Source: Syntrophomonadaceae bacterium
GTDB lineage: Bacteria > Bacillota > Syntrophomonadia > Syntrophomonadales > Syntrophomonadaceae
Direction of reading: 5' to 3'
Assembly: GCA_050943255.1 (NCBI GenBank)
Contig: JBMNOV010000002.1
Coordinates: forward strand, 38,605 to 62,604
Length of the DNA stretch: 24,000 bases
Shown in pieces: positions 16,678-24,000 of this stretch; positions within the stretch are counted from its first letter, which is position 1; the number at the start of each line of letters is the position of its first letter. Under the pieces are notes generated by a model. The model saw only the letters and a list, made by a program, of their open reading frames with translations, did not search any database and was not told where the DNA came from. The translations under genes and the position numbers were made by a program.

Positions 16678-17937
16678 ATGAAAAAAATAATAACAGCCTT
16701 ATTTTTGGCAGTAATTCTTTTTGCCTGCCCAACCCTAAGTGCCGGCGCTCAGGCCCAGGATACTGTTTCCGTATTAGTGGACGGTTTACCGGTAAACCTT
16801 GATGTTTTACCGGTTATTCAAGATGGACGGACTCTAGTTCCTTTCCGGGCTATAGCCGAAGCTATGAACATAGCCGTTAACTGGGATAATCAAACCCGTA
16901 CCATAAATGCAACAAATGGTAATACCATGGTAAAGTTACAGCTTGGCAGCTATACTGCTTATCGCGATAATACCCCTATTAGACTGGATGTTATGCCGCA
17001 AATAGTGGCTGAGCGTACTTTGATTCCATTGCGCTTTTTCGGAGAAGCCTTTAATTGTCAGGTGGGCTGGGATAGCAATACATATCAGGTAAGCGTGATT
17101 TCTCCTCCTAAAGCCATGACAGTTATAGGGTTCTATGCTCTGGGTGACAGCCAAACCAGCAGTTGGACTAATCTTTTCGGGAAAGCTTATCCCGAGACTG
17201 CGTCAGGTAATACAGATGTAATATCGGAACTGGCTTTAGGCTGGTATAGTATTGACAAACAGGGCAATTTACTAGATAAAAGCCGTACCGGGTGGCAGCG
17301 CCCTGATGGCTGGGAAAAGGTATTAGAAAGTGCCGCAAAGTATAAGATGGCAAGTGAAATGGTAATACATGTTACTGACGGCGATAAAACTATTACTTCT
17401 TTTTTAAATGACCCATCAGCCATGGCCCGAGCAGCAAAAGCCATTAGTGCCGAAGCCCGGCAATACAGCGGGGTTAATCTTGATTTCGAGGGTTTAGGTT
17501 ATAATGACAGTGGAGAGCAGCTCAAAGAGATACAGCAAAAATTTACTTATTTTATAAGCCTGCTTGCCCGGGAATTAAAAGCTAATAATAGCAGGCTTAC
17601 GCTCACTTTGCATGCTCCGAACAGTGCTTATCCTGGCTACGATTACCAGGCTTTGGGCCAAATTGCGGATCGTATTATTATCATGGCCTATGATTACGGT
17701 ATTAAGCCTGAGCCAGTCATTCAGGTTAAACAGGCGGTAGAAATGGCGACTGATCTGGTTCCTGCCCATAAATTAATCTTAGGCATTTCCGCCCCCAGTG
17801 AAACAACATCAAGTATTGCCACCAAAGTGGGAATTGCCAAACGTTATGATTTAAGTGGTGTAGCTTTATGGAGATTAGGGGTAATAGATGAAGAAATGTG
17901 GCAGATCATAAGAGGTAGTCTTATTGCTAAACGGTAA
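16678..17937 (+). CDS. Secreted glycoside hydrolase family 18 protein with two N-terminal copper-amine-oxidase-N-like repeats
   Basis: Signal peptide MKKIITALFLAVILFACPTLSAGAQA. The repeats contain DGRTLVPFRAIAEAMNIAVNWD and ERTLIPLRFFGEAFNCQVGWD. The GH18 catalytic strand is SGVNLDFEGL (D-x-E), and IIIMAYDY is typical of GH18 barrels. The SD AGGAGG lies upstream. Confidence 0.85.
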   Translation: MKKIITALFLAVILFACPTLSAGAQAQDTVSVLVDGLPVNLDVLPVIQDGRTLVPFRAIAEAMNIAVNWDNQTRTINATNGNTMVKLQLGSYTAYRDNTPIRLDVMPQIVAERTLIPLRFFGEAFNCQVGWDSNTYQVSVISPPKAMTVIGFYALGDSQTSSWTNLFGKAYPETASGNTDVISELALGWYSIDKQGNLLDKSRTGWQRPDGWEKVLESAAKYKMASEMVIHVTDGDKTITSFLNDPSAMARAAKAISAEARQYSGVNLDFEGLGYNDSGEQLKEIQQKFTYFISLLARELKANNSRLTLTLHAPNSAYPGYDYQALGQIADRIIIMAYDYGIKPEPVIQVKQAVEMATDLVPAHKLILGISAPSETTSSIATKVGIAKRYDLSGVALWRLGVIDEEMWQIIRGSLIAKR

Positions 17938-17950
17938 AAATTGTCTTTAA

Positions 17951-17980
17951 AAGCCCTGGTAAAATACCTAACCAGGGCTT
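17951..17980. terminator. Perfect 10-bp hairpin between convergent genes; probable bidirectional terminator
   Basis: aagccctggt (17951-17960) pairs with accagggctt (17971-17980), leaving a 10-nt loop. It lies between the GH18 stop (17937) and the activase stop (17999). The U-tracts are weak. Confidence 0.55.
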
Positions 17981-17998: not shown

Positions 17999-18994
17999 CT
18001 ACACAACCTTAAGCTTATCCTGGCTATTTCTGGTTAGAGAGCTTTCCCATTTTTTACAACGATCACCCCAGTAGGCTAAAATCTCCTGACCTCTTTTAAT
18101 GCAAACTACTTCGCACAGATTGGGACATCCTTTGCATTCATGGCTACTAGATTTGAATTCACCCTCAATAATAAAATCATCGCCCCGAAAATTGCTTTGG
18201 GTATGGCTCTGCTCTACCTGTTCCTTAGCTAACATAGCAGCACCAATGGCACCCATAACTTCAAAAGGTTCAGGTACATGTATGGGAGTATTTAAGACTT
18301 TCTCAAAGGCCTTTTTAATACCTGAATTAGCAGCTACCCCGCCTTGAAAAACTATAGGTTCTGCGATCTTTTTACCTTTAGCAACATTATTTAAATAGTT
18401 TCTCACCAGTGCTTCACATAGTCCCATTATAATATCTCCAATAGGATAACCCATCTGCTGCTTGTGAATCATGTCTGATTCAGCAAATACCCCGCAACGG
18501 CCCGCTATCCTAACCGGTTGGCCGGAACTTAAGGCATAATCGCCGAAATCTTCAATAGCTATATTTAGCCTTGCCGCCTGTTGATCGAGAAATGATCCGG
18601 TACCAGCAGCACAAACCGTGTTCATAGCAAAATCCTGAACTATTCCATTTTTTAAAATAATTATCTTAGAATCCTGACCCCCAATTTCAATAATGGTACT
18701 TACGCCAGGAAAAAGAGCAGAAGCAGCTACTGCATGTGCCGTTATTTCATTTTTCACCACATCAGCACCTAGTAATATATCAGCAAGGTGACGTCCGCTT
18801 CCGGTAGTCCCAACTCCTTTAATGGAGAGACTCCTTCCCTGCTTGGATTTTATACAGGCAAACCCGTCCTTTACCGCTTTTACTGGATTTCCCTGAGTAC
18901 GCAGGTAGACTTTTTGTATAATATGACCATACTGATCCATTAAAACAAAATTACTGCTTACCGAACCTATGTCAACACCAAGATAATGCTCCAA
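17999..18994 (-). CDS. BadF/BadG/BcrA/BcrD-type ATPase (2-hydroxyacyl-CoA dehydratase activator-like activase)
   Basis: ASKHA-fold motifs are present: LGVDIGSVSSN, GVGTTGSGR, IIEIGGQDSK and FQGGVA. The two activator-family [4Fe-4S] ligand contexts are conserved (NTVCAAGTGSF and GRCGVFAESD). There is an extra Cys-rich C-terminal tail. The SD AGGAGGAAAAG lies upstream. Confidence 0.85.
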   Translation of the reverse strand: MEHYLGVDIGSVSSNFVLMDQYGHIIQKVYLRTQGNPVKAVKDGFACIKSKQGRSLSIKGVGTTGSGRHLADILLGADVVKNEITAHAVAASALFPGVSTIIEIGGQDSKIIILKNGIVQDFAMNTVCAAGTGSFLDQQAARLNIAIEDFGDYALSSGQPVRIAGRCGVFAESDMIHKQQMGYPIGDIIMGLCEALVRNYLNNVAKGKKIAEPIVFQGGVAANSGIKKAFEKVLNTPIHVPEPFEVMGAIGAAMLAKEQVEQSHTQSNFRGDDFIIEGEFKSSSHECKGCPNLCEVVCIKRGQEILAYWGDRCKKWESSLTRNSQDKLKVV

Positions 18995-19259
18995 ACTCTT
19001 TTCCTCCTAAATTTATTTTTTATAATAGTTAGGGAAGAAGGACACGGGTCAGGGGAACTTGAAGATTTTACGTGGTTTATTATTTACCTTTTACTAAGAT
19101 TTATCTGAGCAAAGACCATCGGCTCATGAAAGTATAGCCATTATTTATCCTGACCTAAACTCTTTCAACTTTTACCAAAGTAAGTAACCCAATAATGACC
19201 TCAGACCAACGGGAACATCTGTGGTTCCTTTGGTATGGTTCCTAAAGGGGATCTTTTCC

Positions 19260-20387
19260 TTACAATACGGGATTCGCAGCAGTTATTGGAGCTTTAATGA
19301 CCCCAGGTATCTGCTGCTGTGACCTCCTTTGAATCATATCTACAAATGCCTCCAAACGGGTATGAAGTCCAGCCTGACCGGAGTGTTCATCAAAATATAT
19401 CGTCATGCAAGGTATTCCTTCGATCTCACTAACCTTGCCCAAGATTGCTTGGGCCACTATTTCTGGCATACAGGTCAGGGGACCGATTTGTACAACTCCA
19501 TCATATTTCTTTCGGGCAAAATCTACTGAATAACCTACTGTCTCTTGACCATGCCCACCAACACAGTAATTTAGGTAAGTACTGGCACAATTAATTACTT
19601 CTTTACGATTAGATTTTTTAATCCAGCCCCCCAGCAAATGGTCATTGATCCATTCACTTAGATATATTGAACGTGTAACCTCAGCATTTAAACGGCCTAA
19701 AAAGTTAATTGTAGAATAATTAGCTGCTGGCTCTAATATGGTATATATCTCACCAACTAAGCCTATACGTATAATAGTTTGCTGATGTGCTGGTTCCCTC
19801 TTTAAATTTTCCAAATAGTAATTAGTAATTCGATAAACCTCATCCAGATTATCTGCTTTATCAATACAATCTAGTCCTTCAGTATATATTTGTTCCACTT
19901 TATCCTTGTTTAAAGCCCGGGGAAGGTAGTATTCAAAATGCCTTTCCAGTTTCTCAACTGCATTAAGTTTGCACCAAGCAAATTTTATCGCTTTCCAAGC
20001 CTGCCACAGACTTACATTACTCCCCAAAGACTTTAGTTGTTTTAACAAATCAGATAATCGTGAATCAGGAGCTTCCAGGACAATCATATTAAAATCAAAG
20101 TTTAGACATTTTAGTATATCCCTTTCCACCTGGGCATAATAACCGAATCGGCAAGGTCCCCACCCACCTGCCATAACAATGGTATCTGCCCCTTTTTCCA
20201 AAGCTTCAATAAAGTTTCCCATGTTTATTTTTAGTGGCATACAGGCAAATTCAGGCGAATGCTTAACACCGAGTTCTATCGTCCTTTCACTTATGGGTGG
20301 AGGAGGTATAACTTCCAGGTTAAGACCCTTTAATAAGGCTTTTATAGGAATATGGGCATTACCCATATGCGGGAAGGTTGCTTTCAT
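19260..20387 (-). CDS. Uncharacterised BCR/HAD-associated subunit (resembles the C-terminal non-ATPase region of long 'CoA-substrate-specific enzyme activase' fusions)
   Basis: Recognised by pattern from family memory only: FPHMGN...PEFACMPLKINMG, GGWGPCRFGYYAQ, GPLTCMPEIVAQ. I prefer the ATG at 20387 (GAAGGAGGA 6 nt upstream) over the track start at 20417. It overlaps the upstream gene by 29 nt. Confidence 0.65.
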   Translation of the reverse strand: MKATFPHMGNAHIPIKALLKGLNLEVIPPPPISERTIELGVKHSPEFACMPLKINMGNFIEALEKGADTIVMAGGWGPCRFGYYAQVERDILKCLNFDFNMIVLEAPDSRLSDLLKQLKSLGSNVSLWQAWKAIKFAWCKLNAVEKLERHFEYYLPRALNKDKVEQIYTEGLDCIDKADNLDEVYRITNYYLENLKREPAHQQTIIRIGLVGEIYTILEPAANYSTINFLGRLNAEVTRSIYLSEWINDHLLGGWIKKSNRKEVINCASTYLNYCVGGHGQETVGYSVDFARKKYDGVVQIGPLTCMPEIVAQAILGKVSEIEGIPCMTIYFDEHSGQAGLHTRLEAFVDMIQRRSQQQIPGVIKAPITAANPVL

Positions 20388-21351
20388 TAGATTTCCTCCT
20401 TCTCCGCAACATATCACAAAAGGCCTCTAGTCTTGTAACTAATCCGCCTTCACCACTATGTTCATCTATAGTTAACATCATAAATGGCTTATTTTGAACC
20501 TTCCTTTCTATTATTTCACCAATTAATGAATCAGGCCCACAGCCAAAACAAGCCAGATACACAATTCCATCTATTTCATTACTATTATCCATATGTAGAG
20601 CACTTCCTACCATTTTTCTTCCCAAAGTCCAAAACACCCTTTTAGGCATTGTTGCAGCTTCTTGTTCTATCATTTCCGGGTTAATAGATTCACTTAATAC
20701 AGTACTGCATCCCATTAATCTTAACCGGTTAATAAGATTCATGCTTATAAAAGAGTCATAAAGTGTATAACCATGCCCCAGTACTCCGATTCGAAGATCA
20801 CTTTGGGGATATTTATTATTTATCTGTTTGCCTTCCCACAAGGAAATAGCTTCTTCCCTGGTATATCCTTCGCCTGCAAGCATTGTACAAAAATAATTTT
20901 CTTGACAGGCATGAAGATAAGCTTTTTTAATTTTATTGGTGTTGCTGCTAAATAACCTTCCGACTCTTAATATATCCTTTTTTAAGAAACGATCAGTTTT
21001 ACTTATATCTATGGTAATATCTATTAATGGTGGTAAGTCTTTTACGGTAGCTCTTACCATATCGGGAACTCCCATAAATTTAGGACATATATAGCTCTTA
21101 GGCTCCACGCTCACCAAACGTGGAATAAAAAGATAATCAAGGTTCTGGTTACATAATTCTTTAACATGGCCAAAATAAATCTTTATCGGCAGGCAGGTTT
21201 CATCCACCGTAAAATTAATACCCTGGTCAAGGGTATGGCGGTTGCTTTCCGAAGAAGATATTACTTCAGCTCCCAGGTCAGAAAAAAAGGTCTTCCAAAG
21301 AGGATAGTAATAATAATAAAAAAGACCATGTGGAATCCCAACCCGTCCCAT
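20359..21351 (-). CDS. DUF2229-like protein (CoA enzyme activase uncharacterised domain)
   Basis: The N-terminus MGRVGIPHGLFYYYYYPLWKTFFSDLGAEVI is the characteristic DUF2229 opening. DETCLPIK and YLACFGCGPDS are also present. I prefer the start at 21351 (AAAGGAGG upstream); the track start is 21399. Confidence 0.7.
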   Translation of the reverse strand: MGRVGIPHGLFYYYYYPLWKTFFSDLGAEVISSSESNRHTLDQGINFTVDETCLPIKIYFGHVKELCNQNLDYLFIPRLVSVEPKSYICPKFMGVPDMVRATVKDLPPLIDITIDISKTDRFLKKDILRVGRLFSSNTNKIKKAYLHACQENYFCTMLAGEGYTREEAISLWEGKQINNKYPQSDLRIGVLGHGYTLYDSFISMNLINRLRLMGCSTVLSESINPEMIEQEAATMPKRVFWTLGRKMVGSALHMDNSNEIDGIVYLACFGCGPDSLIGEIIERKVQNKPFMMLTIDEHSGEGGLVTRLEAFCDMLRRRRKSNESNLPAYG

Positions 21352-21428
21352 CTTTTTTCCTCCTTTGTTAATTAAGAGCGTTTTCGGTCGAACCCCCAAT
21401 ATAACACTCCAAAATATTAAGTATAAAT

Positions 21429-21785
21429 TTACGCTTTAGGATTAAATATAACCGCAACAACATAACCAAAAATTATGGCAGCTGCAATTCCAGCTGCAGC
21501 AGCCTCTACACCACCACTAATAGCTCCGAGTAATCCTTTTTGCTCCACTGCTTTAAGGGTTCCCTGAGTTAATAAATGACCAAACCCAGATAGGGGTACA
21601 GTTGCACCGGTTCCCCCTATGTCTACCAGTGGCTGGTATAGCCCTAAACCGCTTAAAAGTGCTCCGCCACTTATGTACCCCACTAGCATATGTCCTGGTG
21701 TTATACTTGGTTTCGTTAAATCCAGTATTAGTTGTCCAATTAGACAAAGTGTTCCTCCAATCAAAAATGCCATTAATAGTGACAA
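21429..21785 (-). CDS. spoVAE: Stage V sporulation protein AE (SpoVAEB-type)
   Basis: A 118-aa polytopic membrane protein. GATVPLSGFGHLL and GGVEAAAAGIAAAI match the SpoVAE pattern. It lies immediately after spoVAD. Confidence 0.9.
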   Translation of the reverse strand: MSLLMAFLIGGTLCLIGQLILDLTKPSITPGHMLVGYISGGALLSGLGLYQPLVDIGGTGATVPLSGFGHLLTQGTLKAVEQKGLLGAISGGVEAAAAGIAAAIIFGYVVAVIFNPKA

Positions 21786-21802: not shown

Positions 21803-22813
21803 CTAATACTCAATGGCAACAGCGTGTGCTATAGCCGGAATTGTTCTGCCCTGAAAACTGGTAGTAGGGCTCATTAGAGCACCGGTAGCAACTAACAACA
21901 GTTTCTTAATCTCAGCTTTAAACATCTTTTTTAAAAGAGGGCCACAGAGCATGGAAGCGCAACAGCCGCAACCGCTGCCACCAGATCCAATATCTTGAGC
22001 ATCATCATATAGAATAACCCCGCAATCGCTATAAACCGGTTGTGGTACGATACCCTCTTTAATAAAAAGTTGACCTAATATTGCCATCCCAACCTTTCCC
22101 AAATCACCAGTGACCACCAGGTCGTAATAATCAAATGGCCGGTTTAAATCATTAAAGTGCATTTTAATGGTATCGACTGCCGCTGGAGCCATGGCACTAC
22201 CCATATCATTAGTATCAGTCTGCCCCATATCAACTACTCTACCAATAGTAGCACAGGTAATCCGGGGTCCTGATCCCATACCTTCCAGAACTACAGCCCC
22301 AGCAGCAGTAGTAGTCCATTGGGAACTAGGAGGCTTTTGTACCCCCTGTTCAGTAGGGAATCGGTACTGTCTCTCGGCTGTGTAATGATGGCTGCAAGCA
22401 GCAGCAACTACTCGCTCAAAGAAACCACCATCAATCAGCATAGAACCAATTAAAATGGACTCAACCATGGTTGAACAAGCACCATAAAGGCCTAAAAAAG
22501 GAATATTTAACTGGGATGCGGCAAAGTTAGCAGAAACTAGTTGGTTTAATAAATCTCCCGCCAATAATACTTCTGCATCCTGTGTATTGAGGCCGCTTTT
22601 ATTAAGGGCTAGTTCTATTGTTTCCTTAAGCATCTTATTTTCAGCCTTTTCCCAGGTATCCTCACCCATTAGATAGTCGGGCATTATAAGATCAAAATCA
22701 TTACCCCATGGTCCTTGACCTTCTTTAGGACCAACTATGGAAGCCCAGGAGGATAGCACCGGGGGTTTATCAAATGATACTGTTTGTTTACCCTTTTTCT
22801 TTGCTTGCGGCAT
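21803..22813 (-). CDS. spoVAD: Stage V sporulation protein AD
   Basis: A 336-aa protein with a thiolase/ketoacyl-synthase-like fold pattern. Motifs include FDKPPVLSSWASIVGPKEGQGP, GLYGACST and GCGCCA, typical of SpoVAD. It sits between spoVAC and spoVAE. Confidence 0.9.
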   Translation of the reverse strand: MPQAKKKGKQTVSFDKPPVLSSWASIVGPKEGQGPWGNDFDLIMPDYLMGEDTWEKAENKMLKETIELALNKSGLNTQDAEVLLAGDLLNQLVSANFAASQLNIPFLGLYGACSTMVESILIGSMLIDGGFFERVVAAACSHHYTAERQYRFPTEQGVQKPPSSQWTTTAAGAVVLEGMGSGPRITCATIGRVVDMGQTDTNDMGSAMAPAAVDTIKMHFNDLNRPFDYYDLVVTGDLGKVGMAILGQLFIKEGIVPQPVYSDCGVILYDDAQDIGSGGSGCGCCASMLCGPLLKKMFKAEIKKLLLVATGALMSPTTSFQGRTIPAIAHAVAIEY

Positions 22814-22960
22814 TAAGATCCCCCTTACTTATGGAATATAAAACAGTTCTGCAGCCATTACCAGAAAATTAACTCATTATAATATCCGACATCACTAAAA
22901 ACTTATTCGGCTGATCCCTATGTATGGAAAGGCATTTGCTTTACATCTTCTTTTTGTGAA

Positions 22961-23425
22961 TTACATAAAGAATAATTTTACTAAGCCAATAAGGGTAGAA
23001 ACTGCAAAACCAAATACTAGGGTTGGACCAGCAACTGTAAAAATACGGGCTCCTACCCCGAAGACATAGCCTTCTCTTTTAAATTCCATAGCTGATGCTA
23101 CTATCGCGTTGGCAAACCCGGTAATAGGTACTATAGAACCGGCTCCTGCCCTTTTAGCCAGCACATCATAAATACCAATGCCCGTGAAAAAAGCACCCAG
23201 CGCTATCATAATTACAGAAGTAATTGAAGAAGCATCTGTTTTTCCTATACCGCCAGCCATTAACAAATTAAGTATAACCTGGGCAATAACACATATTAAT
23301 CCTCCCACTACAAACGCCCAGAGACAGTGTTTTAGCAAAGGCGGCTTAGGTTTTAACTGCTGTACCATACTATCATATTCATTAACTTCAGCTTGTTTTA
23401 AGTCCTCTGTATTAGGTGTTTGCAA
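22961..23425 (-). CDS. spoVAC: Stage V sporulation protein AC
   Basis: A 154-aa four-TM protein. AGAGSIVPITGFANAI and EGYVFGVGARIFTVAGP are SpoVAC hallmarks. It has a TTG start with GGAGGAG 7 nt upstream. Confidence 0.9.
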   Translation of the reverse strand: MQTPNTEDLKQAEVNEYDSMVQQLKPKPPLLKHCLWAFVVGGLICVIAQVILNLLMAGGIGKTDASSITSVIMIALGAFFTGIGIYDVLAKRAGAGSIVPITGFANAIVASAMEFKREGYVFGVGARIFTVAGPTLVFGFAVSTLIGLVKLFFM

Positions 23426-23664: not shown

Positions 23665-23859
23665 TTAATCTACATAGGCAATTTTGATATTAGCCTTATA
23701 CTCAACAATTTTGTTATTTTTACAATCTGCAGTCCAATTGTACACTTCCACTCCAGTTATGTTTGATAAACTAGTGGAAGCTTCGCTTACTGCATTTTCA
23801 ATTGCCTCCTGCCAGCTTCTACGTGATTCACCTACAAATTCAGCTACTTTTACCTGCAT
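23665..23859 (-). CDS. Dodecin-family small flavin-binding protein
   Basis: A 64-aa protein following the dodecin beta-alpha-beta-beta pattern: VAEFVGESRRSWQEAIENAVSEASTSLSNITGVEV...KIVEYKANIKIAY. The SD AAGGAGG lies upstream. Confidence 0.7.
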   Translation of the reverse strand: MQVKVAEFVGESRRSWQEAIENAVSEASTSLSNITGVEVYNWTADCKNNKIVEYKANIKIAYVD

Positions 23860-24000
23860 TGAATATGCCTCCTTAACTCATTTTAATTTTATTTTTAGCA
23901 ATACTTATTTGTTTTATACAAAAGAACTGTCTCTATACCAGTTTTTTAACAACAAATATTATCTGACACTAATCTTTGTATATGGTATAGGCTGCACCTA

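Follow-up and report, generated by a model that had tools for sequence, protein, structure and literature searches.

A three-gene DUF2229-branch enzyme cassette behind the spoVA genes of anaerobic spore-formers and its probable link to the forespore

The 24,000-nucleotide (nt) stretch of Syntrophomonadaceae bacterium DNA analysed here as a whole (the window; positions 38,605 to 62,604 of contig JBMNOV010000002.1, assembly GCA_050943255.1) carries on its minus strand the genes of the dipicolinate channel and, directly behind them and in the same orientation, three genes whose products we call RedA, RedB and Act. The spoVA unit begins with spoVAC (22961–23425; PF03862 131.7 bits, TIGR02838 175.6 bits against a cut-off of 164), continues with spoVAD (21803–22813; PF07451 489.5 bits, TIGR02845 455.5 bits against a cut-off of 411.8) and has spoVAEb (21429–21785; TIGR02839 141.1 bits against a cut-off of 131.1) as its final gene in the window. 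A gap of 77 nt (21352–21428), which contains an AAGGAGG ribosome-binding site and in which a search for terminator-like sites found no hairpin, separates spoVAEb from RedA (20359–21351; 330 amino acids (aa)), the DUF2229 subunit and the counterpart of Red1 in the fused PlsA-like proteins described below. RedB (19260–20387; 375 aa) is by its profile matches, AlphaFold2 (AF2) fold and cysteines a second catalytic-type subunit and the counterpart of Red2. Behind it, after a lineage-specific spacer of 265 nt (18995–19259) with no recognisable element, lies Act (17999–18994; 331 aa), predicted from PF01869, TIGR00241 and PDB sequence matches to be an electron-injecting ATPase of the BcrAD/HgdC type. 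Act ends in a Cys-rich C-terminal tail (encoded at 18056–18136) that is homologous to the linker that follows ATPase domain 2 in the fused proteins. A terminator-like hairpin read from the sequence (GCCCTGGT ... ACCAGGGC then TTTT; 17949–17978, minus strand) lies 21 nt past the Act stop codon and closes the unit, opposite a convergent GH18 gene.

The RedA start is the ATG at 21351 with AAGGAGG in front of it, and the 330-aa form that it gives is both the form that aligns with orthologues and the public gene call. RedB starts at the ATG at 20387 and overlaps RedA by 29 nt, and such a RedA/RedB gene overlap is seen again in 64 of 165 loci; Act starts at a TTG at 18994 with AGGAGG in front of it. 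The original prediction had described three co-oriented genes that follow spoVAE after 77 nt, counted from a start at 21351, with a 29-nt overlap between the first two and a 265-nt spacer before the ATPase gene; its coordinates proved exact, and its distances are all correct. The 265-nt spacer gave no Rfam match and a fold z-score of 0.30, could not be aligned with the nearest relatives, and is atypical in length, since orthologous RedB–Act junctions are mostly shorter than 40 nt.

The gene and family calls do not depend on chance, as the open frames are long and the profile matches strong. RedA is a full DUF2229 protein (PF09989 170.8 bits against a cut-off of 29.4, profile positions 1–217 of 218). 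For RedB the matches cover the N-terminal portion of the DUF2229 profile (35.4 bits) and the C-terminal portion of HGD-D. The HGD-D gathering score of 28.4 is missed by RedB (27.7 bits) and by RedA (22.0 bits), and it is the C-terminal ~65 residues alone that match. At 22% identity (E = 6e-16), RedB is distantly paralogous to RedA. Act scores 163.6 bits with PF01869 (cut-off 31.5) and 187.9 bits with TIGR00241 (cut-off 125.4), and its best solved relatives by sequence are MbdQ (7.5e-41), HgdC (7.6e-36) and HadI (3.2e-35), with DCCP-R also among them. The AF2 model of RedA has a mean predicted local distance difference test score (pLDDT) of 85, and its Foldseek ranks 1–7 are all BzdNO, MbdON, HadBC or DCCP, the best being BzdO (entry 8s02_B), DCCP and HadC; for RedB (pLDDT 83) the top 17 matches are all DCCP, HadBC, BzdNO or MbdON. 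The TM-scores of these matches are 0.5–0.6, and no other folds were significant for either protein. A PDB sequence-profile search with RedA returned DCCP as its sole match (E = 0.12), the double-cubane equivalog NF040772 scored 15.1 bits, far under its cut-off of 350, and the NCBIfam benzoyl-CoA reductase equivalogs also scored far under their cut-offs. Profile and fold searches thus agree with the families first proposed for the two middle proteins, a DUF2229-like protein and a second, related subunit.

Cysteine conservation was assessed in ~100 homologues out of more than 40 families. In Act, C128 and C167, the pair that in activators of the HgdC type bridges the cluster of the dimer, do not vary among 86 homologues and line up with the corresponding cysteines of MbdQ. 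The BadF/BcrA-type ATPase with both activator-type Cys contexts that had been recognised from the letters alone is confirmed by these residues and by its two family profiles. In the tail of Act, Cys287, Cys290, Cys294 and Cys313 are invariant and Cys298 is not. RedA has exactly three invariant cysteines (Cys53, Cys89 and Cys271; 104 sequences), as does RedB (Cys49, Cys79 and Cys306; ~100 sequences). The family shows some structural variation in other genomes, where some RedA homologues have an internal insertion of ~35 residues and some proteins of 690–770 aa resemble RedA–RedB fusions.

Weak RedA matches in other genomes (25–28% identity) fall within open frames of 1420–1488 aa, and four such fused proteins (1420–1436 aa) were fetched for alignment with RedA, RedB and Act. 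All four consist of two BcrAD domains, a CxxCxNNC segment, a DUF2229 domain and a RedB-like part; RedA aligns to residues ~670–985, RedB to residues ~1016–1376, and Act to the second ATPase domain including its Cys segment (CxxCxxxC). A fused single-protein version of the system, which the original prediction had described for other anaerobes, therefore does exist as proteins of ~1430 aa that are collinear with the three genes and have the ATPase first, and the window indeed differs from it in having separate genes and one ATPase gene, downstream of RedA and RedB. The plasmalogen synthase PlsA and the glycerol ester reductase Ger have been described with the same module architecture (PMC12838417, PMC13159169), which makes the window cassette a split, permuted relative of that branch. 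Judged from the fused PlsA-like proteins of the sampled genomes, this relation appears distant: identity to them is 24–28%, and a tree that takes the fused proteins as its root groups the split genes by themselves, behind a very long branch. RedA shares its three cluster cysteines with the fused proteins. R78, K91 and K237, three basic residues that never vary in the split family, have hydrophobic or variable counterparts in the fused proteins; two of the three adjoin the cluster ligand C89.

We refer to cassettes of the kind found in the window as type 1 and to a paralogous kind, described below, as type 2. In the Syntrophomonadaceae, 80 species-level loci have the cassette behind spoVAC-AD-AEb and co-oriented with it, and where gaps of 0.6–2.1 kb precede it they are filled by spoVAEa and/or spoVAF (PF14097, GerA-family genes). 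About 100 further loci were taken from an even, phylum-wide sample. Overall, 131 of 149 type-1 loci have a spoVA gene of the same orientation immediately upstream; outside the window's own family the count is 63 of 84 loci (38 of 49 families), and at three more loci one gene stands between spoVA and the cassette. The adjacency to spoVA, from which a sporulation link had first been suspected, is therefore kept well outside the family. Among the carriers are Syntrophothermus, Phosphitispora, Thermacetogenium, Moorella thermoacetica, Carboxydocella, Calderihabitans, Desulfitibacter, Thermosediminibacter, Anoxybacter and Halobacteroides. The median distance from the last spoVA stop codon to the RedA start is ~40 nt, and it is 10 nt or less in 44 of the 131 loci, 18 of which overlap. 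By gene order, type 1 effectively prolongs the spoVA operon of anaerobic spore-formers at its 3′ end.

Of 111 genomes in an unselected, even sample (completeness 90% or more), 95 have spoVAD and 16 do not. In at least 46 of the 95 spoVAD-bearing genomes (34 families; coordinates matched by eye) a co-oriented RedA-type gene follows shortly downstream. Among the 16 spoVAD-less genomes a split homologue was found in three, weak in every case (33–42% identity), and a strong type-1-like homologue in none. One complete genome of the window's own family that has neither spoVAD nor DpaA also lacks the split cassette and retains a pair of fused PlsA-like genes (1432 and 1420 aa); the organism appears to be asporogenous.

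Forespore-type promoter motifs were sought with a sigmaG-type consensus (GHATR, 17–18 nt, CATXHTA; scored out of 12) and a sigmaF-like one (scored out of 15), and their frequencies were compared with those in mononucleotide shuffles. Of 114 loci, 68 have a sigmaG-type motif of at least 11/12 upstream of spoVAC (47 of 570 shuffles), an enrichment which shows that the consensus is a usable probe for these bacteria. In the gaps of 60 nt or more before RedA, sigmaG-like motifs occur in 17 of 49 (41 of 490 shuffles) and sigmaF-like motifs in 15 of 49 (5 of 490 shuffles), and no enrichment of sigmaA-like motifs was found in these gaps. Of the 22 type-1 loci that lie away from spoVA, 13 have a sigmaF-like motif of at least 14/15, compared with 7 of 440 shuffles, and four have a perfect sigmaG-like motif, compared with 1 of 440 shuffles. 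These motifs stand at a constant 55–73 nt before the start codon, and their presence on relocated cassettes argues against mere inheritance of gene order.

The genome of the window (2.18 Mb, 94% complete) has a second RedA-RedB-Act cassette, of type 2, on the plus strand of another contig (C97:14483–17585), with the same gene order and 4-nt overlaps. Its three proteins are 39%, 36% and 61% identical to those of the window cassette, and it is flanked by selA-selB immediately in front and by a Liv-type ABC transporter behind; a selB-selA neighbourhood recurs in one other genome. In the tree, type 2 branches as a single clade (support 99) from inside the spoVA-linked type 1. The 13 type-2 loci compared all lie away from spoVA and have no sigmaF-like motif. 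A search for conserved neighbours of type-2 cassettes as a clue to the chemistry found none common to more than three related loci. In some type-2 loci a third Red-like gene stands behind Act.

Several further features surround the unit. The neighbour of spoVAC on its upstream side is a gene for a 64-aa dodecin (23665–23859, minus strand; PF07311 78 bits), and a hairpin separates the two genes. The spoVAC-spoVAD gap (22814–22960) is unusually long at 147 nt and contains at 22908 a sigmaG-like motif (GAATA, 17 nt, GATATTA) that scores 11/12, which is not above chance for the region. The convergent gene beyond the hairpin of the unit (16678–17937, plus strand) encodes a copper-amine-oxidase-N domain fused to GH18 and resembles cortex-lytic GH18 enzymes of spore-formers. 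The genes spoIIAA, spoIIAB and sigF share the strand of spoVAC and lie ~5 kb upstream of it (contig C76:62000–70000), and the ~5 kb insertion between this sigF block and spoVAC consists of GDP-mannose dehydratase, epimerase and glycosyltransferase genes.

The extension of the spoVA operon by type 1, together with the forespore-type motif where type 1 has been relocated, points to production in the forespore with the dipicolinate channel. We consider it reasonably probable, on the strength of these genomic patterns, that RedA, RedB and Act make up one complete enzyme of the benzoyl-CoA-reductase / 2-hydroxyacyl-CoA-dehydratase superfamily (BCR/HAD), of its DUF2229 branch, and that this enzyme is made in the forespore together with the channel; it probably works inside the developing spore. 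Its chemistry can be read from homology as follows. An Act homodimer would hold a [4Fe-4S] cluster between two Cys128/Cys167 pairs and accept an electron from a low-potential donor, and ATP hydrolysis would then drive this electron into the clusters of a RedA–RedB heterodimer, to which each subunit would contribute the three cysteines that are invariant in it. A probable role for the four-Cys tail of Act is to bind a further metal centre or to dock Act on RedAB, and RedAB itself would carry out a difficult reduction or dehydration initiated by one electron.

Some observations weigh against this interpretation. The shuffled controls keep base composition alone and related genomes are not independent, so that the motif enrichments above are to be read with both in mind. 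Within the window there is no forespore-type motif above chance, the best one upstream of spoVAC scoring 10/12, and a sigmaF-like motif of 14/15 (GTATA, 15 nt, GCTAAAAATA; 23885–23919) precedes the dodecin gene, ~60 nt before its ATG; the window's own promoter evidence is weaker than that of the relocated orthologues. The cassette sits within an ancient spoIIA-spoVA-lysA block, so adjacency alone could be inertia and may in part be inherited gene order, and 12 of 61 spoVA–RedA gaps of at least 40 nt contain terminator-like hairpins. The tags Moth_1370–1372, at about which genome spacing and accession order place the Moorella thermoacetica cassette, are absent among the entries listed in the available part of that organism's spore proteome, an absence that is uninformative in itself; in the same part SpoVAF (Moth_1373) was barely detected, and other HGD-D and activase proteins are listed (PMC8745062).

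As to what the forespore enzyme might act on, our leading specific candidate, offered tentatively and by analogy, is the ester bond of inner-membrane glycerolipids, with formation of an ether or vinyl ether. RedAB-Act would then be a forespore-specific PlsA/Ger isoenzyme that converts the sn-1 ester of spore inner-membrane glycerolipids to a vinyl-ether or alkyl-ether, a reading that we regard as possible and rather doubtful. SpoVA proteins reside in the spore inner membrane, which suits this idea, as does the collinearity of RedA, RedB and Act with the fused form, Cys tail included, and the sharing of RedA's three cluster cysteines. PlsA/PlsR and Ger, lipid ester reductases, are moreover the sole characterised DUF2229 enzymes, and they catalyse exactly such a conversion (PMC13159169, PMC12838417). 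The low identity and very long branch that separate the cassette from its fused homologues speak against it, however, in a comparison that covers the fused proteins of the sampled genomes. It is further weakened by the coexistence of fused PlsA-like genes with type 1 in Syntrophomonas wolfei and Phosphitispora and by R78, K91 and K237: these invariant residues beside the cluster cysteines, hydrophobic in the fused lipid-type proteins, favour an anionic substrate, and different, anionic substrates taken together appear somewhat more likely than a lipid ester. A literature search found nothing useful on Syntrophomonas plasmalogens and no spore lipid data for these organisms. Should the lipid candidate nonetheless turn out to be right, for which we see a modest chance, an ether or vinyl-ether remodelling of the spore inner membrane in anaerobic spore-formers, so far unknown, would help to make that membrane so extremely impermeable and stable.

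An unlikely alternative to a forespore enzyme of any kind is that the cassette encodes an ordinary vegetative enzyme with no sporulation role, placed in the conserved spoIIA-spoVA-lysA block just as lysA is. The gene order has features that fit this: lysA follows Act, co-oriented, in 46 of 166 type-1 loci, which mirrors the spoVAF-lysA order of Bacillus subtilis, spoIIAA, spoIIAB and sigF stand upstream on the same strand, and the terminator-like hairpins between spoVA and RedA in some lineages and the failure to see the cassette among the listed Moorella spore proteome entries would also be expected. It does not account well for the 44 of 131 loci in which the codons of the last spoVA gene and RedA overlap or nearly touch, for the forespore-type promoter motifs of relocated copies where type-2 controls have none, or for the distribution of the cassette, of which the 16 spoVAD-less genomes have no strong homologue (weak ones in three) and which the family's one apparently asporogenous genome lacks as well.

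Much less probable still is a dipicolinate or diaminopimelate enzyme, either an alternative dipicolinate synthase or a reductase of the dipicolinate ring that feeds lysA, even though the cassette lies between the dipicolinate channel genes and lysA, BCR-type enzymes dearomatise rings, the conserved basic residues beside the RedA cluster would suit an anionic substrate, and a DpaA/DpaB profile search of the 94%-complete window genome gave no match above the cut-off: DpaA is present in 10 of 11 family genomes and in nearly every genome with a spoVA-linked cassette, the oxidation of dihydrodipicolinate should require no ATP-driven low-potential electron, and a dipicolinate reductase would be counter-productive while dipicolinate accumulates. 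The substitute synthase was rejected on the first of these grounds, as co-occurrence with DpaA almost everywhere means that the cassette does not replace SpoVF. The DpaA gene of the window genome may be unassembled or lost.

The sporulation gene set has been defined largely from aerobic Bacillus, and the sampled Bacillus-type genomes do not have the cassette. Anaerobic spore-formers of dozens of families have retained it, as part of the spoVA operon or with a forespore-type promoter motif in front, and by analogy with its family the enzyme would be oxygen-sensitive, ATP-consuming and built for hard reductions. In the literature library that was searched, no paper connects BCR/HAD-type enzymes with spoVA or the forespore. 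If the link to the forespore is true, anaerobic spores undergo a chemical step that has so far not been described. At E ≤ 1e-30 RedA matches 552 clusters at 50% identity, a large and uncharacterised family on which the function of the cassette could give a first handle.

Comparison with known systems begins with the chromosome of Bacillus subtilis, which has the same order of spoIIA operon, spoVA operon and lysA; the anaerobes differ in having three extra genes between spoVAF (or spoVAEb) and lysA, and no RedA homologue was found in the sampled genomes with Bacillus-type DpaA. Among enzymes, PlsA/PlsR (CPE1194/1195 of Clostridium perfringens; single-gene PlsA in Enterococcus, Lactococcus and Bifidobacterium) likewise has a DUF2229 domain and a second, HGD-D-like reductase domain, a BcrAD-type ATPase with two bridging cysteines, and a Cys-rich segment behind the ATPase (PMC12838417). 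The cassette is distinguished by its three genes and by a single ATPase placed last, where PlsA/PlsR has two tandem ATPase domains in front, and it forms a separate clade, 24–28% identical to the sampled fused relatives, with basic residues near the cluster and a tie to spoVA. Ger of Thermotoga maritima (Tmari_0479) is by description also of the DUF2229 branch, with BBD plus small D/H domains (PMC13159169), but it consists of one fused protein, produces saturated alkyl ethers in the membranes of vegetative cells and has no described link to sporulation.

The classical dehydratases HgdCAB and HadIBC share with the cassette the plan of a homodimeric ATPase activator and a heterodimer of two related Fe-S subunits; Act resembles HgdC and HadI at about 1e-35, and RedA and RedB fold like HadB and HadC. 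Unlike the cassette, these enzymes have neither a DUF2229 domain nor a Cys tail of the Act type, and for RedAB there is no pointer to a CoA-thioester substrate. The class I benzoyl-CoA reductases (BzdNOPQ, MbdONQP) supply the best PDB match of Act, MbdQ, and the best fold match of RedA, BzdO, but they are built from four different subunits, with two distinct ATPases, and are encoded in aromatic-degradation gene contexts. DCCP with DCCP-R, finally, is a top fold match for both RedA and RedB and, like the system proposed here, an ATP-driven reductase whose physiological substrate is unknown; it differs in that DCCP is a homodimer with its cluster held by six cysteines of one chain, where RedA and RedB would bring three each.

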